Shown piece after piece: positions 6,853-18,434 of a DNA stretch of 20,587 bases. The DNA lies in the IMG/VR virus record IMGVR_UViG_3300029862_000030, positions 1 to 20,587 of that record; one strand, 5' to 3'. This DNA is from a virus. Taxonomy: Duplodnaviria > Heunggongvirae > Uroviricota > Caudoviricetes. Position 1 is the stretch's first letter. Every line of letters starts with the position of its first letter. A model generated the notes under the pieces. It was not told the DNA's origin. It saw only the letters and a program-made list of their open reading frames with translations, and made no database searches. The translations under genes and the position numbers were made by a program.

Positions 6853-8070
6853 TTATTTGCCAGTGAGCGCCTTGATGGCTGCCACATCTTCCAGCACACA
6901 GTCAAAACGATGGAAAGCCAGAAATGCCACCTGATCAAACTCAGCATAACGCTCAACCAGACGTTTCAGTTCCATATAAGTAACGCGGCGAATGATAAAG
7001 CGGTTGAAATCCCCCAGGAAAATGAATTTTTTTCCGGTACCAATCCCGTCAATAGCCTGATCAATAACATAAGGGATCCCCAGCACAGTAGCCGGCGTAC
7101 CGCCTGCAATATCCGGCAGCCATAACGGGCGTTTCTGTCCATCCTCCATCTCTTCAATAGTCTGCAATGTGGCATCATTGAATGCCCAGCGGTATTTCGG
7201 CCCACCACGATATGCCGGATCAATGGCATGTTTCAGGGCATTCATTTCTTTCCAGGTGAAAGCGGCAGAGGCTGCAGTCTGGATGGTTCCCGTCACCGAC
7301 GCTGCCAGCCCTTTTGGCTGTAACGGTGATCCCGTTCCGGTCCCCTGAACCAGATATTTTGCCTCTCCACGACCAATACGCTGGGCAATACGGTTTGCCA
7401 GATAAGATTCAATATCCACCCCACTGTCCTGGAGCAGCTCATTGGACACACGAATTATTTTTGATGACAGCTTTTTAGCCCCCAGAATAGCGGTCCCGAA
7501 CGTCACATCCTGTTCCGTTGCGGCTGTATTTTCCGCCAGCAGTTCGCCCTCTTCAGTCGTGCCATCAGACGTTGACCAGGTGATATCCTGCCCGGTTGAT
7601 GTGGTCAGAAGTTGCGCCACACTGGCAATCCCGCCATAAGCCTTCATGGTGTCAATGATTTTGTTACGCATCTGCGTGGGCACCGTATATCCGCCCTGAG
7701 AATCCGTTGTTACACTCTGAGCCCGCAGTTCACGCATCAGATTACGCTCTTCAGCATTCAGTTCTGCAAATCCGGCACGCAGAAAACGGTTAAATGCCGC
7801 AGCGCGCTTCTCTTCCACCGCCTTTTTCCCGTTCTCCGCCTCATTATTCTGGCGCTCTTCCGGCCCGGACTCATCCACATATGCCTGATCCTGACGGCGC
7901 AACTCTTCTTCACGGGCGATTTGCTCATCCAGCGCATCCAGCTCAGCTTTCGCCCTGTTCCACTCTGCCCGTTGCTCATCAGTCCATGCGTTATCACCAA
8001 TTTTTTCATGCAGTGCACGCATATCCTTTGCAATGGTGTTTCGTTTTTGCTTCATCTCATGAAGTTTCAT
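6853..8070 (-). CDS. Major capsid protein, HK97 fold, with an N-terminal delta (scaffolding) domain
   Basis: 405-aa ORF. The N-terminal ~100 aa are charged and coiled-coil-like (delta domain), followed by a capsid-like body. It follows the prohead protease, as in HK97. Confidence 0.9.
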   Translation of the reverse strand: MKLHEMKQKRNTIAKDMRALHEKIGDNAWTDEQRAEWNRAKAELDALDEQIAREEELRRQDQAYVDESGPEERQNNEAENGKKAVEEKRAAAFNRFLRAGFAELNAEERNLMRELRAQSVTTDSQGGYTVPTQMRNKIIDTMKAYGGIASVAQLLTTSTGQDITWSTSDGTTEEGELLAENTAATEQDVTFGTAILGAKKLSSKIIRVSNELLQDSGVDIESYLANRIAQRIGRGEAKYLVQGTGTGSPLQPKGLAASVTGTIQTAASAAFTWKEMNALKHAIDPAYRGGPKYRWAFNDATLQTIEEMEDGQKRPLWLPDIAGGTPATVLGIPYVIDQAIDGIGTGKKFIFLGDFNRFIIRRVTYMELKRLVERYAEFDQVAFLAFHRFDCVLEDVAAIKALTGK

Positions 8071-8084
8071 CGTCAGTAGTATCC

Positions 8085-8684
8085 TTATGCATTAAGAAGG
8101 GTCAAAAGACGCTCACGCGCCATTCGTTCGTTAACAGCTTTCTTCAGCGCACCACTCGCCCGCGCTTCCTGCCAGGCTTTCATTGAGCGGACACCAGAGT
8201 CTGCGTCCTGATAGGCCGGATATGTCACCGGGCTGACGTCATACAGACGAGAAATGCGCGTGATTTCCCGGATAACAATCCCCTCGTCGTCTTCATACCA
8301 GCTCTCTCCGTCACGGGCGACACGAAACGCGAACGAGGACTGATTAATGTCACCACGCAACATTGGAGACAGCACCAGGTCACAAATAGTCGGAGTATCC
8401 GGTGCAACAATGTCATAACGTAAACCGCGTTCATCCACCGACAATGACAACGTGCCGGCAGAACTTCGTCCGAGAATGAAATTAGGATCATGATTAAACA
8501 AGCCACGTACATCATCATTCAGTACATCATCAAAAGCCCCCGGCTTGATGATTTCACGAAATCCCCACAGAGGTTCTGAACGACTGTTAAATACCGAGCC
8601 ATAGCCCAGAATGTGGGTCGGGGCATTATCATATTGTTCCGCCCGCACCTCCCCGCTGTAACAGCGCGTTTCACGGTCATTCAT
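8085..8684 (-). CDS. Prohead maturation protease (HK97 gp4-like, S78 family)
   Basis: 199-aa ORF between portal and capsid, with the typical size and position. Confidence 0.85.
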   Translation of the reverse strand: MNDRETRCYSGEVRAEQYDNAPTHILGYGSVFNSRSEPLWGFREIIKPGAFDDVLNDDVRGLFNHDPNFILGRSSAGTLSLSVDERGLRYDIVAPDTPTICDLVLSPMLRGDINQSSFAFRVARDGESWYEDDEGIVIREITRISRLYDVSPVTYPAYQDADSGVRSMKAWQEARASGALKKAVNERMARERLLTLLNA

Positions 8685-9903
8685 CGTTCTTTTCCTCTTT
8701 GCCTTTCGTATCTTTAAAGTTATTCAACGGATTTGCTGCATTTACGCTGACCAGCATTTCATCCAGACCGTCAACCGGGTTCATATCCTCAAATGCCCTG
8801 GCTTCATTCCGGCTCATCCAGCCATCTGTAATGGCAAAGTGATAGAACTGCGCACGCTCCTGTGGGGTCCCACGGAGCAACCCCGTGAGGTTGAAGCGAA
8901 CGTAATACCCGGCAGCCCGTTCTGTACGGGTAAACAGGCGACGGTTAAGCTCCTGCTCCCAGTTCGCAACCCAGGGCATCATCGTGTAGCGAACAAACTG
9001 AATCGCCTGCTGCGTAATATTCGAAAATGTGGCTTTTTCCAGGTCATTAATCATGTGCGCCGGGACATTAAAAATCCCGGCAATCATCGACCGGTTCAGC
9101 TTGGTCATATCAATGATCTGAGCATCCACCGGAGAAACTGTCAGAGCGCGGTAATCCAGTTGCGCAGGCAGCAACATGGTTTTATTTTCCTGGCTGCGAA
9201 GCGCTGTCACCGCCCGCTGCCACATATTCTTGAGCCTGCTCCAACTCTGTTCGTTCAGTTCATTTTTCACAGAAATAATCCCGGCAGGACGGGCATTACC
9301 GTTAAAAAAAGCACTGGTATACTGCTGACCACTCATTCCCATACCAATGGTTTCAGCATGCTGCATGATCGGACTCAGTCCCATTTTCTGATTGTTTCCC
9401 AGCGCCCTGATATGGATCATGTCGTCCGGACTTACCGCAAATGCACCCTCTTCGTTATACACACCGTAGGTATGACGCCCTCCGGTGTTAAGTAACGTGG
9501 TTTCCCATGGCATACAGCATTCAAGACTGGTAACCTCGCCACGACGATTACGTTTCACCCACGTATAACCATTGCCCCACCCCAGCACATGACGCTGCTT
9601 CAGTTCCCGCCACTTATAGCTGGTCTGCCAGGCATTCGGTTCATCATGAACGAGCCAGAACAACGGGTGATCGCGTGCCGGCTGAACATGCTCATTCGTT
9701 TTTCGCATCACATGCAGGGGCATCTGAGCCACACTGGATGAAATAACATAAATACAGGCATAGACAGCAGCCAGCCTCATGGACGTTTCCGGACTGACAT
9801 ACACATCCCGGGCAAAAATATTATCCGTCTCAGCGGCCTCTCCGGTTACCGGAACCGAGGGATTTTCCAGAGGCTCACTGCGAAACAGAGCATCAAGAAG
9901 CAT
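8677..9903 (-). CDS. Portal protein (HK97 gp3-like)
   Basis: 408-aa ORF downstream of the large terminase, with an AGGAGAAAAC Shine-Dalgarno sequence before its ATG. Confidence 0.9.
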   Translation of the reverse strand: MLLDALFRSEPLENPSVPVTGEAAETDNIFARDVYVSPETSMRLAAVYACIYVISSSVAQMPLHVMRKTNEHVQPARDHPLFWLVHDEPNAWQTSYKWRELKQRHVLGWGNGYTWVKRNRRGEVTSLECCMPWETTLLNTGGRHTYGVYNEEGAFAVSPDDMIHIRALGNNQKMGLSPIMQHAETIGMGMSGQQYTSAFFNGNARPAGIISVKNELNEQSWSRLKNMWQRAVTALRSQENKTMLLPAQLDYRALTVSPVDAQIIDMTKLNRSMIAGIFNVPAHMINDLEKATFSNITQQAIQFVRYTMMPWVANWEQELNRRLFTRTERAAGYYVRFNLTGLLRGTPQERAQFYHFAITDGWMSRNEARAFEDMNPVDGLDEMLVSVNAANPLNNFKDTKGKEEKNDE

Positions 9904-10050: not shown

Positions 10051-11808
10051 TCACAGAATTAACAGGTCCTCATCAGGATCAAGCGTGGACAGAAAGTCAT
10101 TCACGCCCCCGCCATTTACCAGAAAGCGGCTCATGGCTGTAAAAAGCGCAACAGGGCCGTCGATTTTGGCTTCCGGCGTGGATTTATTCGGGAAGATGTT
10201 GTCGTTTTTGTCCGGTTTTACAGTAACGTTAGACATCATCCAGTTCATGACCGGATGATTGCTGTGATGGAAACGCCCGGCATAAACCAGTGATTCCGTT
10301 TCCTTCATGGCCTCTGACAGATTGCGGACCGTCTGCGGAACCTCCACCAGCGGTATCCCTTCTTCAGCCAGTGCCAGGCTGAACTGCATTGCGCTCCACG
10401 GGTCAAATCCCAGTTCCCTGAGGTTTTCACCGCCAATCCATTCCAGTAAGTCACTTTTTATCTGAGCATGATCGATAACATCACCATCCGTCAGGATGAG
10501 CTTATCCATCTCCGCCCACTTCCGGTAAAGTTCTGCCTGCTGCCGCGAGCATCGCTCCAGCCGTCCTTCCGGAAGCCAGAATTTAAAATCAGCATGAACA
10601 TGTCCGTTATCGGTTCGCCAGAGTTTTGCCGCCGCACAGATATCAATCTTATGAGCAAGGTCTACGCCGACCCACATGGGATATGTTTTCAGCTCATGTT
10701 GTGGAGCAATGTATTCGCACTTCTCCCACTTAATCATATCCATCCAGGCAGATTCGGCAGTGACCCACACATTCATGTGTTTGGTAAAAAAATTCACCCG
10801 CGCAGAGACCTGCTCCTTCGCTTTTTTCGCCAGACGACGCAGATCATCCCAGCGTTTACAGATGCCCAGGCCAGGATTCGCTTTCTGCCAGACCGTTTCA
10901 TCAAACGGATCATCTCCCTCATCAAGCGTGTAAATGATCGCAAAGTAAGAGTCGTCTTTTACAGCGCCCTCCACGTCGCTGTTATAGCCTCGCAATACCT
11001 TGATGGCGTAATCACGCTGCTCGTAACAAATCCCTTCCTTGTTAAAGCCAGCCGTGGTGATACCAAATAACAGGGACTGCAGACGGGCACCGGTTGCCGT
11101 TTCCAGAACGTCCCACACGTCGCGGGTTTTATGTGCATGCAGCTCATCAATAATGGCGCAGTGGATGTTCAGACCGTCCAGGTTGTTTGCATCCGAGGAA
11201 AGCGGTTCAAATTTTGATGCGCTCTGCTCCTGGTAAATCGCCAGCTTGTTGAAATCAAACAACCGCCCGAGTGTCGACCGGGCTTTTCTGACCATATTTT
11301 TGGCGTCTTCAAACACGATTCTGGCCTGGTCACGCGTGGTTGCGGCTGAATACACCTCAGCTCCGCCTTCACTATCTGCCCCCGTCATATACAGGCCGAT
11401 ACCCGATGACAGTGTTGATTTTGCGTTTTTACGGGCGACTTCGTTGTACGCCGTCCGGAACCGGCGCACCATCACCGGACGTCCGCTGCCATCGCTGCGC
11501 ATGACAACTTCCCCGGTTTCTTCATTGACCAGCGGAATGACAAAACCAAAAATATTAATGAGGATAAATACATGCCAGTCCATCAACTCAATGGGCTGGC
11601 CTGCCAGTGCCCCTTTTACATGAGGCACAAATTTGTAGAAATTCAGGATGTGCTGCGCACGGGGTTCACTGAAATAAATCCCCCGCTTTTCGCCGTACTT
11701 CAGATCATCAAGAAAACGCTGGCAGGCCAGGCGGACAAATTCGCCAGCAACAATTTCTCCTGCAACAACACGTTCGGCGTAGCGGATCCCGTCAGCCACT
11801 TTTGCCAT
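10051..11808 (-). CDS. Terminase large subunit
   Basis: 585-aa ORF. The start overlaps the small-subunit stop, and it sits upstream of the portal. Confidence 0.9.
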   Translation of the reverse strand: MAKVADGIRYAERVVAGEIVAGEFVRLACQRFLDDLKYGEKRGIYFSEPRAQHILNFYKFVPHVKGALAGQPIELMDWHVFILINIFGFVIPLVNEETGEVVMRSDGSGRPVMVRRFRTAYNEVARKNAKSTLSSGIGLYMTGADSEGGAEVYSAATTRDQARIVFEDAKNMVRKARSTLGRLFDFNKLAIYQEQSASKFEPLSSDANNLDGLNIHCAIIDELHAHKTRDVWDVLETATGARLQSLLFGITTAGFNKEGICYEQRDYAIKVLRGYNSDVEGAVKDDSYFAIIYTLDEGDDPFDETVWQKANPGLGICKRWDDLRRLAKKAKEQVSARVNFFTKHMNVWVTAESAWMDMIKWEKCEYIAPQHELKTYPMWVGVDLAHKIDICAAAKLWRTDNGHVHADFKFWLPEGRLERCSRQQAELYRKWAEMDKLILTDGDVIDHAQIKSDLLEWIGGENLRELGFDPWSAMQFSLALAEEGIPLVEVPQTVRNLSEAMKETESLVYAGRFHHSNHPVMNWMMSNVTVKPDKNDNIFPNKSTPEAKIDGPVALFTAMSRFLVNGGGVNDFLSTLDPDEDLLIL

Positions 11809-12290
11809 CAGTCTCTCGCTTTTAAAAGCTCTGCCAGCGGATCAACATTATCCGGTCCGGCGGTATTTACTTTTGCCCGGCTTGCCGGTGACATACCAAA
11901 TTCTGCAAGCATCGCCCGGATCCGCTTCCAGGCATCCGCTTTCATCGCAGCAGCTGGGTGTGCCTTAATCAGCACATCACCGTTCTGCGTTTCCGAGCGG
12001 TAGGTGTACCCCTCAACATCGAGTGTTTCGCAGTGATGCCGGTATTCGGTATAGGCTTCCACCAGTAGCTCAAGCGCACGCGCATCAAGCTGAGAAATGA
12101 TCCCTTCCGCATTCAGCTCTTCCGCCATTCGCCTGAACCAGTACTTCCCCTGCGCCCCTAAATGTTGCGGAATTTTAGGGAGACCTTTTTCATCCTTTTT
12201 AGCGGTTTTTTTGAGGTCTTTAACTGGCCGCTTTGAGGGGTTGCCTCGTATCAAATGCAGGCGTGGCGGGGTTTTCGGGGGTCCAGACAT
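11808..12290 (-). CDS. Terminase small subunit (P27 family type)
   Basis: 160-aa ORF immediately upstream of the large subunit with which it overlaps. It has a basic N-terminus (KRPVKDLKKTAKKDEKG). Confidence 0.75.
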   Translation of the reverse strand: MSGPPKTPPRLHLIRGNPSKRPVKDLKKTAKKDEKGLPKIPQHLGAQGKYWFRRMAEELNAEGIISQLDARALELLVEAYTEYRHHCETLDVEGYTYRSETQNGDVLIKAHPAAAMKADAWKRIRAMLAEFGMSPASRAKVNTAGPDNVDPLAELLKARD

Positions 12291-12519
12291 AATCGGTTTT
12301 ACCTATCAATCATTTAATCACATTCCAAAAAAAAGTTTTCGAACCTGCGGCGATGCGAGGAAAGGTCAGGCGGCGGTACTGAGCAGCCTGGGTTGCAGAG
12401 ATTTGATCCCCCCCCTCCCCCTTGAAGATGGCGGCAAAAAGCAGATACTGGCCACCCATCAGGATGCTCAGCATGGTGTATTCAGTTAATCTCAATAAAT
12501 AAAAGATGGAGTCTAAGAA

Positions 12520-13035
12520 ATGGATAAAACCAGAAAATATGACAGAGCCTTACAACTTGAAATCCTCAATGCCCTTATAGATTGCGCGCCTAACTCTTTA
12601 AACAAGGCACAGGAGCGAGACCTCATTGAGAAGTTTGACAGTTACGATCACTTTGTGGCGTGCATGTTATACCTTGAAATGCATGGTCTCGTTTCCACCC
12701 CCTTCATACGCAGTGACACCATGGCTGGCGTTGAGTTTATCTTCTGTGCCCCTAACTGCTACATTACAGAAAAAGGAATTGATTTTCTTCTCGATGATGG
12801 CGGCTTAAGTGCGATCCTTAAAGTTCAGACCTTTCGGTTACACAGTGACACGATTGTTGCCCTTGAGGATATAATCCGTGTCGCAAATATATCTGAAGAT
12901 CAGAAGAAGGGATTGATTTCAAAACTCCGAGAGCTTCCGGGAGACGCCATAAAACATTTGACCCTACAGTTACTGACTCAGGGGGTTCTGAATCTGCCGA
13001 ACGCACTTCGACTAATTCAAACAACCCTCCAGTAG
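12520..13035 (+). CDS. Hypothetical protein, unknown function; AT-rich gene on the opposite strand to the late operon
   Basis: 171-aa plus-strand ORF with a GGAG Shine-Dalgarno sequence 9 nt upstream of the ATG. Base composition is visibly more AT-rich than the flanking late genes. It is inserted between the HNH endonuclease and the small terminase gene. Confidence 0.6.
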   Translation: MDKTRKYDRALQLEILNALIDCAPNSLNKAQERDLIEKFDSYDHFVACMLYLEMHGLVSTPFIRSDTMAGVEFIFCAPNCYITEKGIDFLLDDGGLSAILKVQTFRLHSDTIVALEDIIRVANISEDQKKGLISKLRELPGDAIKHLTLQLLTQGVLNLPNALRLIQTTLQ

Positions 13036-13170
13036 GGCTAAACTCATCTGAGGGGCGAATTAACTCAAATTTGCCCCATCCCAGTTTTTCACTTAAAACA
13101 ACCCAAAATCCCTCCCGGGTATCTGCATGAATATAGAAACTATTTTTATGCATTACAGCAGTGAATATTA

Positions 13171-13521
13171 TCATCGAATACGTTCCCTTGCTGTCTTCTC
13201 TCTGTGGCATTCCCTGCATAACGACTCAAGATTGGAGTCATCATCGGTGCCGCCATGAGCTTTTGGAATCATGTGGTCTACAGTCCTGGCCTCAACGGCT
13301 CGTCCATTGCGCAGACAGTTCTTACACAGATGGTTATCACGCTTCAGTATACGCGCACGTATAACATCCCATTTCGAGCCATAGCCACGCTGGTGGCGAC
13401 TCAGTCCGCGTTGATGCTGTACCCATCCTTCACCACGATGTTTATCGCAGTAACCAGAACTGTCTGTGGTTGTACCTGCGCATCCACGCTTACGGCAGGC
13501 ACGTGGGATTCGTGATGGCAT
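13171..13521 (-). CDS. HNH endonuclease (packaging-associated, HK97 gp74-like)
   Basis: 116-aa ORF with Cys pairs flanking an H-N-H motif region (CKNCLRNGRAVEARTVDHMIPKAHGGTDDDSNLESLCRECHREK). Confidence 0.85.
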   Translation of the reverse strand: MPSRIPRACRKRGCAGTTTDSSGYCDKHRGEGWVQHQRGLSRHQRGYGSKWDVIRARILKRDNHLCKNCLRNGRAVEARTVDHMIPKAHGGTDDDSNLESLCRECHREKTARERIR

Positions 13522-13563: not shown

Positions 13564-14028
13564 CTACTTAATGCACTGAGTGCGGATATACTCCTGTGCC
13601 CCTTCCAGTTGCATCTGCATCGTCATCAGCCGCTCTCTGAGGGTGAAATAATCCCGTTCAGCGGTGTCTGCCAGTCGGGGGCTGGTTGCATTATCCACGC
13701 CGGAGGCGGTGGTGGCTTCACGCACTGACTGACAGACTGCTTTGATGTGCAACCGACGACGACCAGCGGCAACGTCAGCGCGAAGAGTTTCATTTTCAGC
13801 CTTCGCATCAGCTAACTCCTTCAGGTATTTTGCATCGAGTGCAGCAACATCACGCTGGCGTATCTGCATGTCAGTAATGATTGCGGTCGCCTGGTTGAGT
13901 TTTTCCATCACATTATCGCGTTGCGCTTTGTAGGTAATGGCATTATCACGGTAATGATTGACCGCCCACGACAGGCAGACGATGATGCAGATAACCAGAG
14001 CATAAATAATCGCGGCGACTCTGCTCAC
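13564..14028 (-). CDS. Rz: Spanin inner-membrane subunit (Rz / i-spanin)
   Basis: Near-identical over long stretches to lambda Rz as recalled ([27 protein letters not shown]..., [25 protein letters not shown]). The track ORF begins at TTG 14043; the likely true start is GTG 14028 (VSRVAAII, aligned with lambda MSRVTAII), overlapping the endolysin stop. Confidence 0.9.
13626..13808 (-). CDS. Rz1: Spanin outer-membrane lipoprotein subunit (Rz1 / o-spanin), nested inside Rz in the +1 frame
   Basis: 60-aa ORF with the lipobox LVVVGC and the proline-rich segment [29 protein letters not shown], almost identical to lambda Rz1 as recalled. Confidence 0.85.
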
Positions 14029-14558
14029 TGATCTATCCCCCAACAGGCTAATGCGCTTTCCTGGTCACGACGAATAACCTGTCCATAGCAGTTATTTGAA
14101 CGTATGCGGCAATCGCGCCCACCATCTTTTATCCACCAGCGAATCGCCTCGCATGCGCCCTTACGATCACCGGCATTCAGCCGCTTATAAAACGTCGACG
14201 GAAAACACTTACCGGGGCCAATGTTATAGGGACAGAATGACGCGATACCCGCTTTTTGTGGTTCGGTCATTGGTACTTTAATATTGCGCTCTACCCATGC
14301 CAGCGCCTTATCACGTTCAATAGCGTTAACCTGGTCGCATTTTTCCTTCGACAGTTTCATACCGGGAAAAACGGGTTTTCCATCCACCATCGTGGCACCC
14401 CGACAGATGGTCCAGATGCCGGAACCATCGCGGTATGCCGTTGTGTGGTTACCTTCTTTTTCATCCAGAAACTGGTCGAGAATGTCAGGCGCAGGCGCAC
14501 CTGCGGCAATCAGCGCCAGAACGGCAGCCGACAGGCCGTATCTGATTTTTGCGTTCAT
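14025..14558 (-). CDS. SAR endolysin (lysozyme, phage 21 R / Qin RrrQ type)
   Basis: 177-aa ORF. The N-terminus ([27 protein letters not shown]) is a Gly/Ala-rich, weakly hydrophobic signal-anchor-release segment. The body is lysozyme-like and matches my recollection of the E. coli Qin prophage lysozyme. Confidence 0.9.
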
Positions 14559-14608: not shown

Positions 14609-14953
14609 TCAGCCCAGCGGTGGAGTCTTCAGAGAACCAGTAATTCTTCCCGGTAGCTTTCCTTTGTAGGTTATCCACACATTCTGCGCCTCTAAAATTA
14701 CGGGGCGCTTTTCCGGCGACTGCTCACCCCCTTCACATAACCCGGCAGCAACATCCAGGAAGACCTGTCTGATGCTCCTTCTGGCTGCTGCCTCATAAAA
14801 CTCCAGCGCGGCACCTTCAACACGGTCCAGCGAGATGTCCAGGTCAAAAATTTCACCGTCAAAGCGTTTTTTGTCCCGTAACGCTAAAGTTACCGTAACT
14901 TTATTCTCAAAATTGCGGATCCCTTTCACAATCAGTTCATAGTTTTGAGTCAT
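14609..14953 (-). CDS. YdfR-like (DUF1327-type) conserved protein of unknown function between holin and endolysin
   Basis: 114-aa ORF. Its position between holin and lysozyme is the same as ydfR in the E. coli Qin prophage. The family assignment is from memory. Confidence 0.65.
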   Translation of the reverse strand: MTQNYELIVKGIRNFENKVTVTLALRDKKRFDGEIFDLDISLDRVEGAALEFYEAAARRSIRQVFLDVAAGLCEGGEQSPEKRPVILEAQNVWITYKGKLPGRITGSLKTPPLG

Positions 14954-14957
14954 TGAA

Positions 14958-15173
14958 TTACTCTCCCCGTGCAGCCTTACGCTTGTCTTCTCTGATTTTG
15001 AAGTACAGATTTGTCAGATAAGTCAGGAAGCCCAGAACCAGACTCCCCAGTACACCAATCGCAGCCCACTGTGACGGACTGACCTGATCAAGCCACTGTA
15101 AAAACCAGTAGCCAGCACTGCCTGCGGAGGTGCCGTAGGCAATGCCCGTTGAAATTTTGTCCATGGATTTCAT
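14958..15173 (-). CDS. Class II pinholin (phage 21 S-type) with a dual-start motif
   Basis: The 71-aa product [71 protein letters not shown] matches the phage 21 S holin as recalled. The track ORF 14958..15272 was trimmed to the ATG at 15173, which has a GGAGG Shine-Dalgarno sequence. M1 and M4 give the antiholin/holin dual start. Confidence 0.9.
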
Positions 15174-15310
15174 AGCCTCACCTCCGCAGCGAACGGATGG
15201 CGTAGTTATAAGGGGAGCGAAAAAGAAAGAATGCGCGATTGCGCAATATGGTAACGTCAGGGTATTATCCACTGGCTGAATAGATCACTTCACGTTTTTT
15301 GTTCCTTGCC

Positions 15311-15614: not shown

Positions 15615-15691
15615 TGGCGCGTTGTACTGGATTCGAACCAGTGACCGATTGCTTAGAAGGCAATTGCTCTGTCCGGTTGAGCTAACAACGC
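15615..15691 (-). tRNA. tRNA-Arg (anticodon TCT, reads AGA), argO-like
   Basis: Hand-folded from the reverse complement: acceptor stem GCGTTGT/ACAACGC, D arm GCTC..GAGC, anticodon stem ATTGC/GCAAT with loop CTTCTAA, T arm CTGGTTCGAATCCAG, discriminator G and an encoded CCA. Similar to E. coli argU. Confidence 0.8.
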
Positions 15692-15704
15692 AGGGTACAG
15701 ATAA

Positions 15705-15781
15705 TGGACCGCCATCGAGGACTCGAACCCCGCGCAACCAGCTTCGAAGGCTGGTGCTCTATCCTGATGAGCTAATGGCGG
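15705..15781 (-). tRNA. tRNA-Arg (anticodon TCG as read by hand, reads CGA), argN-like
   Basis: Hand-folded: acceptor stem CCGCCAT/ATGGCGG (C1-G72), D stem GCTC/GAGC, anticodon stem CCAGC/GCTGG with loop CTTCGAA, T arm CGGGGTTCGAGTCCTCG and an encoded CCA. The anticodon call depends on my loop assignment. Confidence 0.65.
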
Positions 15782-15788
15782 TATGTGA

Positions 15789-15864
15789 TGGTGGCCCTTG
15801 CTGGATTTGAACCAGCGACCTGGCGATTATGAGTCGCTCGCTCTCACCACTGAGCTAAAGGGCC
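15789..15864 (-). tRNA. tRNA-Ile2 (anticodon CAT, lysidine type, reads AUA), ileZ/ileX-like
   Basis: Hand-folded 76-nt sequence GGCCCTTTAGCTCAGTGGTGAGAGCGAGCGACTCATAATCGCCAGGTCGCTGGTTCAAATCCAGCAAGGGCCACCA, which closely resembles E. coli tRNA-Ile2 (ileX) as recalled. Anticodon loop CTCATAA. Confidence 0.8.
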
Positions 15865-15904: not shown

Positions 15905-16243
15905 TCATCCGTTCTGGCTGACTAAATCCTGTACTTCCCGAACCGTCTGCTCAAAACGTTCAGTCTCCAGCTCAACGCCAATTGCACGACGCCCGAGCGC
16001 CAGTGCCGCTTTCACTGTCGAACCCGACCCCATGAAAAAATCTGCAATCAGGTCACCCGGACGACTGCTAGCGCTGATTATCTGCTGCAGCATTTCTGCC
16101 GGTTTTTCGCACGGATGTTTCCCGGGATAGAACTGCACCGGTTTATGCGTCCAGACATCGGTATACGGCACCTGCGCCGTCACGCCAAAATACCGCCGCA
16201 GTCGGCATTCACAACCACCAGCGCATTTAACGTTCAGGCACAA
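15905..16243 (-). pseudogene. 5'-truncated DNA N6-adenine/N4-cytosine methyltransferase remnant (C-terminal part only)
   Basis: The 112-aa ORF contains HPCEKP (the HPTQKP-type motif) and DFFMGSGST (the FxGxG AdoMet-binding motif) near its C-terminus. These are the C-terminal half of beta-class amino-methyltransferases. No DPPY motif or N-terminal half is present; the reading frame runs into the AT-rich region upstream of the porin. Confidence 0.6.
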
Positions 16244-16693
16244 AAAAACCCGCTCATCGGCGGGTTTAAGCTGTGTGACGAAGTAACTACTCTTAACAGC
16301 ATAACCAATTTTTTACGTACGTAAACTACTAAATGATATTTGTGAGAATGCCACCGAGTGTTCAAAACACCACCACAAATACATAAGAAAATTTCAACAA
16401 ATAACCAATTAATAATTTCAGATGTTATTTTTAGTTTGTTTAAATTAAGCTAAAGAATTATAGACTGCTTATAAATAAGTTCCATTAATATAAATTAGCT
16501 AATAGATTTATTTTTGTTCAAACAAGAGCCATAAATAGGATTAGATAGAAAAGGTTCAGATAAAAATAGAGATCTACTTCACAAATTAAATGAGAAACTA
16601 AAACTTACATCTTGAAATAATCACATTGATTAGATGAATATTTATCGCGCAGTGACATCATTTTTTAATAATAGTTCAAAAAAAGGGTGTACA

Positions 16694-17776
16694 ATGAAAA
16701 AATTAACAGTGGCAATTTCTGCTGTAGCTGCATCAGTACTGATGGCGATGTCTGCTCAGGCAGCTGAAATTTATAATAAAGACAGTAACAAGCTGGATCT
16801 ATACGGGAAAGTTAATGCCAAGCACTACTTCTCCTCTAATGATGCAGATGATGGTGATACTACTTATGCCCGTCTTGGCTTCAAAGGTGAAACCCAAATC
16901 AACGATCAACTGACTGGTTTCGGTCAGTGGGAATATGAATTCAAAGGCAACCGCGCTGAATCTCAAGGTTCTTCCAAAGACAAAACCCGTCTTGCATTTG
17001 CAGGCCTGAAATTTGGTGATTACGGCTCAATCGATTACGGCCGTAACTACGGTGTAGCATACGACATCGGTGCGTGGACTGACGTTCTGCCAGAATTCGG
17101 TGGTGATACCTGGACCCAAACAGATGTGTTCATGACTGGTCGCACTACTGGTGTTGCAACTTATCGTAACAACGACTTCTTTGGTCTGGTCGATGGCCTG
17201 AACTTTGCTGCTCAGTATCAGGGTAAAAATGACCGCACTGACGTAACTGAAGCCAATGGTGATGGTTTCGGTTTCTCCACTACTTATGAGTATGAAGGAT
17301 TCGGCGTGGGTGCAACCTATGCTAAATCAGATCGCACTGACGGTCAGGTCGCCTATGGTAAGAGCAAATTCAATGCCTCCGGCAAAAATGCGGAAGTATG
17401 GGCTGCAGGCCTGAAATATGATGCGAACAATATCTATCTGGCTACCACATATTCTGAAACTCAGAATATGACCGTTTTTGGTAATAACCATATTGCAAAC
17501 AAAGCACAAAACTTTGAAGCAGTAGCACAATATCAGTTTGACTTCGGTCTGCGCCCATCTGTTGCTTACCTTCAGTCAAAAGGTAAAGACCTTGGTGTTC
17601 ATGGTGACCGAGACTTAGTCAAGTATGTCGATGTCGGTGCTACTTACTACTTTAATAAAAACATGTCCACTTTTGTTGATTACAAAATCAACTTAATTGA
17701 CGATAGTAAGTTTACCAAAACAGCTGATATTGATACCGACGACATCGTCGCTGTAGGTCTGGTTTACCAGTTCTAA
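16694..17776 (+). CDS. nmpC: Outer membrane general porin, NmpC/OmpC/OmpD family
   Basis: The track ORF 16634..17776 contains the signal peptide [23 protein letters not shown] followed by [16 protein letters not shown] and a C-terminal ...VGLVYQF beta-barrel signature, matching NmpC as recalled. The start was trimmed to the MKKL Met; my nucleotide count in that line disagrees with the track frame by 1 nt, so the start is good to about 1 nt. It is on the opposite strand to the phage late genes and preceded by about 370 nt of very AT-rich DNA. Confidence 0.9.
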
Positions 17777-17965: not shown

Positions 17966-18349
17966 TTAATTAGAGTTATTAACAACGATATCCATCTCTA
18001 ACTGGATATCTAATGCCATTAACATCCCTTCAATTATGCCCTCAGCCTTCTGTAACCTTTTCCCGATATAACCATCAGAGCAGCAATGCTTACCTGCCAG
18101 TGACATGAATGTCATACCGACTACATAATAATCTACTAATAAATCGTGCAAATCGCTGTTGTTCTTTTTCAGACGGGCCATGCACCCGCAAATGATCATA
18201 GCGTCATCGTCACAACATTGCGGGCGAGATTTTACTTTTGAAGTAATTAATCCCTTAAAACCGGCGGCAATGGACGACCAGGTCACATCTTCATGATTAT
18301 TAGCCGCCCACGCTCCCCAACGCTCAAGAACCATCTGAATATCACGCAT
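17966..18349 (-). CDS. Late-gene antiterminator Q (DLP12 QuuD-like)
   Basis: The 127-aa product from the ATG at 18349 ([22 protein letters not shown]...) matches my recollection of E. coli QuuD. The track ORF starts 5 codons earlier at an alternative TTG. It lies downstream of rusA and ylcG, as in DLP12. Confidence 0.8.
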
Positions 18350-18434
18350 CAACTTACTCCACAAAAATCAGACCAGAACGCCAATTACAAGCAAAAATCA
18401 ACAAAACAGTATTAGTTGATTGTTATCTCTGACT

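Follow-up and report, generated by a model that had tools for sequence, protein, structure and literature searches.

Cleavage of phage DNA at cos by an HNH protein acting with the terminase is best described for HK97, whose HNH protein, gp74, stimulates cos cleavage by the HK97 terminase in vitro (PMC9410871). The HK97 ends bear 10-nt 3' overhangs (PMC11331095; PMC9410871), and the site of its small terminase (TerS) has been mapped to +15 to +29, a stretch that includes a G and an A-tract (PMC11331095). A second relevant set of enzymes is Group 1 of Xu and Gupta, comprising small phage and prophage HNH proteins that are strand-specific nickases with sites sharing ACCG (PMC3592412). The members are defined by an N-terminal CxxxxC, CxxH ribbon plus a C-terminal HNH domain with two CxxC pairs, within a length of 95-300 aa; the genes for such zinc-ribbon HNH proteins adjoin cos and terminase genes, and the enzymes nick at AC^CG / CG^GT (PMC3592412). 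For the HNH protein of phage GVE2 (Geobacillus virus E2), the catalytic residues are H93, N109 and H118 (PMC5304195).

Here we analyze an HNH endonuclease gene that lies close to the genes for TerS, the large terminase (TerL) and the portal, but is separated from them by a gene on the opposite strand. The window, i.e. the whole stretch of DNA that was analyzed, comprises 20,587 nucleotides of the IMG/VR virus record IMGVR_UViG_3300029862_000030. A preliminary description of this DNA had assigned the HNH protein to the packaging module and had proposed that the opposite-strand gene was inserted at the genome-end junction. Our overall reading, to which we assign a probability of about 85%, is that the HNH protein is indeed of the packaging type and that cos is intact, the extra gene being a moron that was brought in by recombination of a block of ~870 bp.

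Results

Late genes around the HNH endonuclease

Over 2 kb the window is 99.8% identical to Escherichia phage PhiR49_2 (PV340570), and several E. coli chromosomes match it at 99.8-100% identity; it represents the late region of a lambdoid E. coli prophage whose head and packaging module are of the HK97 type. The minus-strand genes are listed in Table 1 in their order from the antiterminator Q down to the tape measure, together with the tRNA genes, the cos elements and the exchanged block. The HNH ORF was recovered at exactly the coordinates, and with the ATG start, previously given for it, and profile matches bear out its neighbors, with TerS, TerL and the portal on one side and Rz and the endolysin on the other.

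Table 1. Coordinates of the late genes, cos elements and exchanged block in the window
Feature	Position	Strand	Matches and remarks
Antiterminator Q	17966-18364	-	
Three tRNA genes (Arg-tct, Arg-tcg, Met-cat)	15615-15864	-	upstream of holin
P21-type holin	14958-15272	-	
DUF1327/YdfR	14609-14953	-	
Endolysin	14025-14558	-	upstream side of HNH
Rz	13564-14043	-	upstream side of HNH
HNH endonuclease, 116 aa, ATG start	13171..13521	-	PF01844, PHROG 144, 5h0m, gp74
Opposite-strand gene (putative moron), 171 aa	12520..13035	+	PHROG 3983
Recombined block, ~870 bp	12408..13278	.	80-93% identical to Citrobacter L104, flanks differ
G-run GGGGGAGGGGGGGG, then ATCAAA	12408..12421	-	conserved in 10 phages including HK97
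Predicted cos cleavage core ACCGCCGCC-TGA	12366..12377	-	HK97 record-end alignment; ACCGCCGCC = 12369-12377
Conserved box CATCGCCGCAGGTTCGAAAAC, then T8	12327..12355	-	conserved in 8 P27-TerS phages
TerS, P27 family	11808..12290	-	PF05119 (Terminase_4), E 4.9e-25; TIGR01558, E 3.9e-31; PHROG 83
TerL, ATPase + nuclease domains	10051..11808	-	PF03354, PF20441; PHROG 9, E 1.7e-188
53-aa ORF	between TerL and portal	-	
Portal, HK97 type	8677..9903	-	PF04860, E 1.9e-100
S78 prohead protease	8085-8684	-	
HK97-fold capsid protein	6853-8070	-	
HK97-type tape measure	beyond capsid gene	-	

Further upstream, beside the tRNA genes, the product of an ORF at 15905-16243 (-) matches an N6/N4 DNA methylase in its C-terminal part only (profile positions 135-220 of 221) and looks truncated. 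The interval from antiterminator Q to the tRNA/lysis region holds a full-length, opposite-strand gene for an OmpC/OmpF-type porin (16634-17776, +; PF00267, E 1e-150), a second moron in the same late region; we take it to resemble the phage-borne porins Lc and NmpC.

In the record of PhiR49_2 (L001, 4472-4822) the HNH gene is not annotated, an opposite-strand ORF of 61 aa being called instead, although the HNH ORF is intact and encodes a protein identical to that of the window; our literature search found no paper describing this phage.

The HNH protein and its relatives

The 116-aa product matches the Pfam HNH family with an E-value of 9.2e-16 (58 bits, against a cut-off of 21.4) and the PHROG family 'HNH endonuclease' with an E-value of 4e-39. 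All catalytic and zinc-binding residues of the HNH domain are kept, i.e. D82-H83, N97, H106, C66xxC69 and C102xxC105, and they are preceded by an N-terminal zinc ribbon, C9xxxxC14 / C25xxH28, the cysteines and H28 of which are invariant in an alignment of 23 sequences of the family. In a profile search of the PDB, residues 1-113 align with residues 2-126 of the GVE2 HNH structure, corresponding to a full-length match (E 1.3e-13), with H83, N97 and H106 falling on the GVE2 catalytic residues H93, N109 and H118. The length and all four motif pairs are those of the Group 1 architecture, and by class the protein is a predicted zinc-ribbon HNH nickase.

The alignment with HK97 gp74 that had been proposed as a check on packaging association bears out homology of the catalytic domain. 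Pairwise BLASTP gives 40% identity over 47 residues (overall, 36-40% over 47-66 residues), and the 23-sequence family profile aligns with the whole catalytic domain of gp74 (hhalign, 97.6% probability, E 4e-12), in an alignment that bridges the known helical insertion of gp74. Packaging-associated phage HNH proteins of the gp74 type were reportedly treated as a class by Kala et al. in 2014; the features of this class are present in the window, where an HNH domain with intact His, Asn and His is encoded next to cos, the terminase and an HK97-type portal, protease and capsid. As gp74 lacks the zinc ribbon, such that only the catalytic domain is common to the two proteins, function can be transferred to the window protein only via homology and synteny; on these grounds its predicted role as an accessory nuclease for cos cleavage is well supported.

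A different view would be that the HNH protein is a selfish homing endonuclease, the proximity of the terminase being incidental and the mosaic joint described below a trace of homing-associated gene conversion. Several phage records (ON470xxx) do label its orthologue 'homing endonuclease', the recombination joint is located inside the HNH gene, and a recent survey (2025) urges caution in reading the role of an HNH protein from its position (PMC12315714). However, the ORF stands by itself between Rz and cos and no interrupted host gene is seen in its relatives, i.e. it is not found within an intron, an intein or a conserved host gene with HNH-less alleles, as a homing endonuclease would be. 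Its length of ~116 aa is uniform and its position fixed across Enterobacterales, it is present in 913 E. coli genomes, and its best structural relative is a cos-adjacent nickase, to which the homology with gp74 may be added. The exchanged block, moreover, holds only the 3' third of the HNH gene together with an unrelated gene, unlike a self-mobilizing endonuclease gene. Homing is therefore a highly improbable explanation, and the clustering with intron or intein enzymes that the preliminary description had named as contrary evidence is not what the comparisons reveal; rather, the full-length match to 5h0m, the homology with gp74 and the nearby TerS at every locus compared (see below) point to a packaging-associated protein.

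Sequence elements of cos

The position of cos was deduced by alignment with the HK97 mature ends and with eight other phages, the ten aligned phages and prophages being from E. coli (four), HK97, mEp235, Citrobacter, Pantoea, Morganella and Klebsiella; the spacing in HK97 differs by a few bases. Among the relatives, only the HK97 record starts and ends at mature termini. When the records of other relatives were inspected for true ends, that of mEp235 (JQ182731) was found to open at the TerS ATG, and those of Fraca, PSTRCR_117lys and CharmingMan to be arbitrarily opened or circular.

The right arm of HK97 ends with GGGCAGGGGGGGGGATCAAATCT-N23-GACCGCCGCCAAA and its left arm starts with GTTTGAATTTAACGCTAACCCGATTTTTTT, after which comes the TerS start; the minus strand of the window reads GGGGGAGGGGGGGGATCAAATCT-N22-TACCGCCGCCTGA-N14-CATCGCCGCAGGTTCGAAAACTTTTTTTT-N36-ATG(TerS), with the HK97 end placed by the alignment at position 12366. 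The same order of elements recurs across the ten aligned phages, the G-run and the ACCGCCGCC core being conserved and the spacers variable, and the T-tract box is conserved in the phages with a P27-family TerS (eight aligned). The G-run is the cos element furthest from TerS; with its ATCAAA it is unique in the window, where 0.06 chance matches would be expected. The core, ACCGCCGCC, is likewise unique in the window, contains the ACCG motif (12374-12377), and is invariant in nine of the ten aligned phages. In the Citrobacter prophage, a core of 15 nt is 87% identical to that of the window, compared with 36-37% for its flanks. The conserved box on the TerS side of the core is probably the small-terminase binding site, in a position equivalent to that of the +15 to +29 site of HK97 (CGA + T-tract). 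By homology with HK97, cos would lie ~76-130 bp upstream of the TerS start, and judged from the alignment all of its conserved elements are intact and contiguous with TerS.

Cut positions can be proposed on the same basis. The equivalent of the HK97 mature right end would come after base 12366 and the 10-nt 3' overhang would be formed by 12366-12375, CGCCGCCTGA. If the HK97 record gives the full top strand, its last 10 nt, CGCCGCCAAA, form the overhang and the bottom strand is cut at GGCG^GTC. The corresponding bottom-strand cut in the window would fall between 12375 and 12376, matching the site CG^GT at which zinc-ribbon HNH enzymes nick, and we infer that it is this CG/GT site in the core that the HNH protein nicks. 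It has reportedly been suggested that TerL cuts one strand and the HNH protein the other, and the predicted cut positions fit. The conserved core is suggestive of a division of labor, as a bottom-strand nick by the HNH protein at GGCG^GT would lie exactly 10 nt away from where the HK97 record places the top-strand cut, and would explain the length of the overhang.

The whole of cos, from the G-run to the T-tract, is also covered by a minus-strand ORF (12310-12495, 54-61 aa), for which RefSeq and two phage records give a hypothetical protein. The N-terminal half of the product, which lies inside the imported block, is hydrophobic (MLSILMGGQYLLFAAIF), and there is a 12-nt in-frame indel relative to Citrobacter. 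We rejected this ORF as a real gene, as it overlaps conserved cos elements and its N terminus differs between the arrangements; it is probably spurious.

Spacing of the HNH and terminase genes

The association of the HNH gene with the terminase was assessed using the 79 IMG/VR loci that hold both a close HNH relative and TerS. A P27-family TerS is located at most 900 nt downstream of the HNH gene in all 79; measured from where the HNH match ends to where TerS starts, the spacing is 151-156 nt at 72 loci, 194 nt at one and 883-897 nt at six, with the 171-aa gene present in each of these six. The window has a gap of 883 nt, which contains the gene. Among 5426 complete E. coli genomes, the uninterrupted HNH-cos-TerS segment was found in 913 and the interrupted form, at 94-100% identity, in 27; of the E. 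coli prophages that share this HNH, cos and TerS, ~97% lack the 171-aa gene.

The HNH-terminase association is thus real and strong, and comparison with prophages lacking the extra gene, as the preliminary description had proposed, confirms the direct arrangement as the common one. The further proposal, that a canonical adjacency is broken here by the gene at 12520..13035, holds in that the interrupted form is the minority arrangement, but not in so far as adjacency was taken for a strict rule, the interval from gp74 to the genome end in HK97 being ~320 bp. This interval includes an unannotated same-strand ORF of 67-83 aa, lying between gene 74 and the right cohesive end (AF069529, 39346-39597; L006, 1847-2098).

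The slot between HNH and cos that is occupied in the window is a rare one, whereas the gap between Rz and HNH is often filled in sibling phages, where it measures 46, 470, 857 or 1120 nt and holds bor/iss or other small genes. Examples of cargo in the Rz-HNH gap are found in sibling phages at L003, 4615-4908, and L004, 4228-5039. At three of the IMG/VR loci (L017-L019) the Rz-HNH interval is also expanded, to 470 or 857 nt, and both slots are apparently filled.

Exchange of a DNA block

The proposal of an insertion at the genome-end junction did not survive comparison with related phages, in two respects. As regards its place, the foreign DNA is found between the HNH stop codon and cos, in the right arm, and starts just outside the G-run, ~45-55 bp from the predicted cut; because cos is intact beside TerS, the extra gene is located between the HNH stop codon and cos, and not in the end junction itself. 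As regards its nature, a simple insertion can be dismissed, the 3'-terminal ~108 nt of HNH having arrived together with the extra gene in a block that is common to a Citrobacter prophage.

The block extends from the G-run through a 99-nt leader, the moron and intergenic DNA into HNH, of which it includes the last 36 codons. The Citrobacter prophage remnant has the same order of TerS, 171-aa gene and HNH, and is 80-93% identical to the window over 12408-13278; its cos/TerS-proximal DNA and the 5' portion of its HNH gene are only 36-59% identical. With respect to phi467, 813R8 and 611R1, the homology runs from the TerS side through cos and ends at ~12421, the outer edge of the G-run, which forms the left boundary of the recombination. 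At the other boundary, the identity of the HNH gene to that of phi467 changes in steps, from 57-63% over 13171-13245 to 85-93% over 13246-13365 and 97-100% from 13366, i.e. the 5' two-thirds of the gene are of the E. coli phi467 type and the 3' ~108 nt (13171-13278) belong to the imported block. HNH alleles at least 94.8% identical to that of the window are all linked to the 171-aa gene, whereas alleles without it are at most 92.2% identical.

From the steps in HNH identity, the allele linkage and the sharing with Citrobacter, it follows that the block was exchanged between otherwise different phages. It was swapped by recombination at two conserved sequences, namely the G-run of cos and the DNA encoding DHxIPKAHGG of the HNH protein; the resulting arrangement is ordinary phage mosaicism. 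A de novo insertion of the extra gene in this lineage was considered and rejected, given that the HNH 3' end co-varies with it and that the whole block is present in the Citrobacter prophage. The codon differences between the HNH genes of the window and phi467 comprise 24 synonymous and 12 non-synonymous changes, with every motif residue kept, a pattern that points to purifying selection on the imported 3' end.

The Citrobacter copy of the block (L104; GCA_046518175.1, 3332-5014) is in a decayed prophage, in which TerS (144 aa) is directly followed by host-type genes for an EAL-domain protein and an MFS transporter; its cos core is ACTGCCGCC in place of ACCGCCGCC, with ACTG instead of ACCG.

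Such a rearrangement could in principle have harmed cos or the expression of the late operon, leaving the prophage as a packaging-defective remnant. In the window ~730 bp of foreign DNA splits HNH from TerS and brings weak terminator-like hairpins (13120-13101 and 13040-13022) onto the late-transcript strand, and the Citrobacter copy, with its mutated core, resides in a degraded prophage. Q-antiterminated late transcription, however, normally passes such hairpins, as is known from lambda. In addition, the conserved cos elements are all intact, the late-gene ORFs in the window are all full-length, the 3' end of the HNH gene appears to be under purifying selection, and the same arrangement is present both in the 27 E. 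coli genomes and in PhiR49_2, which was deposited as a complete phage genome. We consider a packaging defect very doubtful; the persistence of the arrangement at 94-100% identity in 27 genomes would instead imply that it is packageable.

The gene between the nuclease and cos

The ORF of 171 aa is real, as had been claimed and at exactly the coordinates given, its product matching a PHROG family (E 1e-56) and having 194 database homologues. It lies on the plus strand amid a run of minus-strand late genes, and its GC content is 0.41-0.46 compared with 0.50-0.55 in the surroundings. A GGAG is positioned 8 nt ahead of its ATG, a sequence scan found no sigma-70 consensus promoter for it, and downstream there is a hairpin, GGGGC-N15-GCCCC, with a T-run but with a long loop, which we did not call a terminator. 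The gene may be expressed independently of the late operon.

An AlphaFold2 model of the protein (pLDDT 82) consists of an N-terminal winged helix followed by a bundle of four helices at the C terminus. There was no match to a curated family in Pfam, NCBIfam or PADLOC. Its homologues are 'hypothetical proteins' of Enterobacterales, with distant ones in phages of Pseudomonas, Acinetobacter and Halomonas. A PDB profile search with the family returned IgG-binding domains of protein A, with an E-value of 8e-11 for multi-repeat constructs, the resemblance to the three-helix domains of protein A being in residues 103-145 of the product (stretch ANISEDQKKGLISKLRELPGDA). We rejected homology with protein A, as the low E-values come from multi-repeat constructs and single domains score only 13-15 bits (E ~0.15); the resemblance probably reflects a helix-loop-helix pattern in common.

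In Salmonella, a relative of the gene occupies the Q-holin interval, and in Proteus one separates the tape measure from a minor tail gene (gpM). An Enterobacter prophage has a relative at its end, and in Pantoea and another E. coli the relatives lie upstream of a hypothetical gene and HNH. They are opposite to the late genes in every slot seen. Because its relatives fill several other opposite-strand prophage slots, we classify the gene, on sequence grounds, as a moron, i.e. as cargo outside the packaging module. The other features of a moron are also present, in that the gene occurs in only some related phages (six of the 79 loci; 27 E. coli genomes against 913) with collinear flanks, and in that its base composition and orientation differ from those of the surrounding operon.

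Given the predicted DNA-binding winged-helix fold, the protein might alternatively be a working part of packaging or of cos, for instance a cos-binding accessory factor or one that protects or redirects packaging, recruited to its position for that reason. The gene directly adjoins the G-run of cos, the two are transferred together in the block, and the same arrangement of gene and G-run is present in Citrobacter. However, it is on the opposite strand and of lower GC content, most of the E. coli prophages that have this HNH-cos-TerS unit lack it, its relatives occupy unrelated slots (Q-holin, tape measure-gpM, prophage end), and the protein has no similarity to terminase, Rpp-like or defence families in Pfam, NCBIfam, PADLOC or the PDB. 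We consider such a packaging role quite unlikely. The related suggestion that the block was built to sit against the cos G-run, the protein being other than random cargo, is likewise improbable, but would have consequences for function. The gene would be the nearest to the right virion end, ~150 bp from the predicted end and transcribed inward, and if that end enters first, as in lambda, it could be expressed while the rest of the genome has yet to arrive; alternatively, the protein could bind DNA near cos and affect packaging, or could keep out rival cos phages or satellites.

Discussion

Our results are consistent with a model in which the HNH nickase would work with the P27-family TerS and TerL, cutting concatemeric DNA at cos, the late transcript of the integrated or circular genome running from the lysis genes through HNH and cos to TerS. 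Into this unit, a block carrying the lower-GC 171-aa gene has recombined between the HNH stop codon and the G-run, its ends provided by the conserved G-run and by DNA for the conserved HNH motif (DHxIPKAHGG). The exchange would leave the nuclease and cos functional, and no gene would lie closer to the right end of the virion chromosome than the 171-aa gene.

The HNH protein is of the known gp74/GVE2 type and the extra gene a known prophage moron, and it is the slot and the block structure that are a modest new instance; the finding is a clean, documented example and not a discovery. It implies that an HNH-cos-terminase unit can accommodate cargo in the interval from HNH to cos as long as the segment from the G-run to TerS is intact, and so gives an estimate, based on sequence, of the minimal cos region of a packaging module present in about one-sixth of complete E. 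coli genomes. It also illustrates how a moron may spread across phages of different genera via two short sequences that are conserved for other functions. The comparisons flag problems of annotation, with the HNH gene missing in the PhiR49_2 record and called a homing endonuclease in others. Members of PHROG 3983, the family of the 171-aa protein, occur widely in prophages of Enterobacterales, and a screen of prophage functions could reasonably include them.

Of the described systems, HK97 shares with the window a homologous HNH catalytic domain, encoded by the last late gene before cos and TerS, and the same partners, i.e. TerL, portal, S78 protease and HK97-fold capsid. In both, cos is built in a similar way, with a G-run plus ATCAAATCT, the ACCGCCGCC core and a T-tract before TerS. 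HK97 differs in that gp74 has no N-terminal zinc ribbon but has a 16-residue helical insertion and a C-terminal tail, in that its TerS is not of the P27 family, and in that a small same-strand ORF, rather than an opposite-strand moron, is found between gp74 and cos.

The Group 1 HNH nickases, including GVE2 HNHE (5h0m) and N.phiGamma, share the full-length CxxxxC/CxxH ribbon plus HNH architecture and the location of the gene, which adjoins cos and a P27- or HK97-type terminase; the family's ACCG nick site is present in the cos core of the window. In contrast to these enzymes, the window protein comes from a phage with a Gram-negative host, and its identity to 5h0m is low outside the conserved motifs.

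With respect to the moron, the closest parallel is bor/iss of lambda, which is likewise a short, lower-GC, opposite-strand gene located in the interval from the lysis cassette to cos and found in only some related phages. Bor/iss encodes a lipoprotein, whereas the moron of the window encodes a protein predicted to be cytoplasmic and winged-helix, and in sibling phages bor/iss is carried one slot upstream, between Rz and HNH, the corresponding slot in the window being that between HNH and cos.
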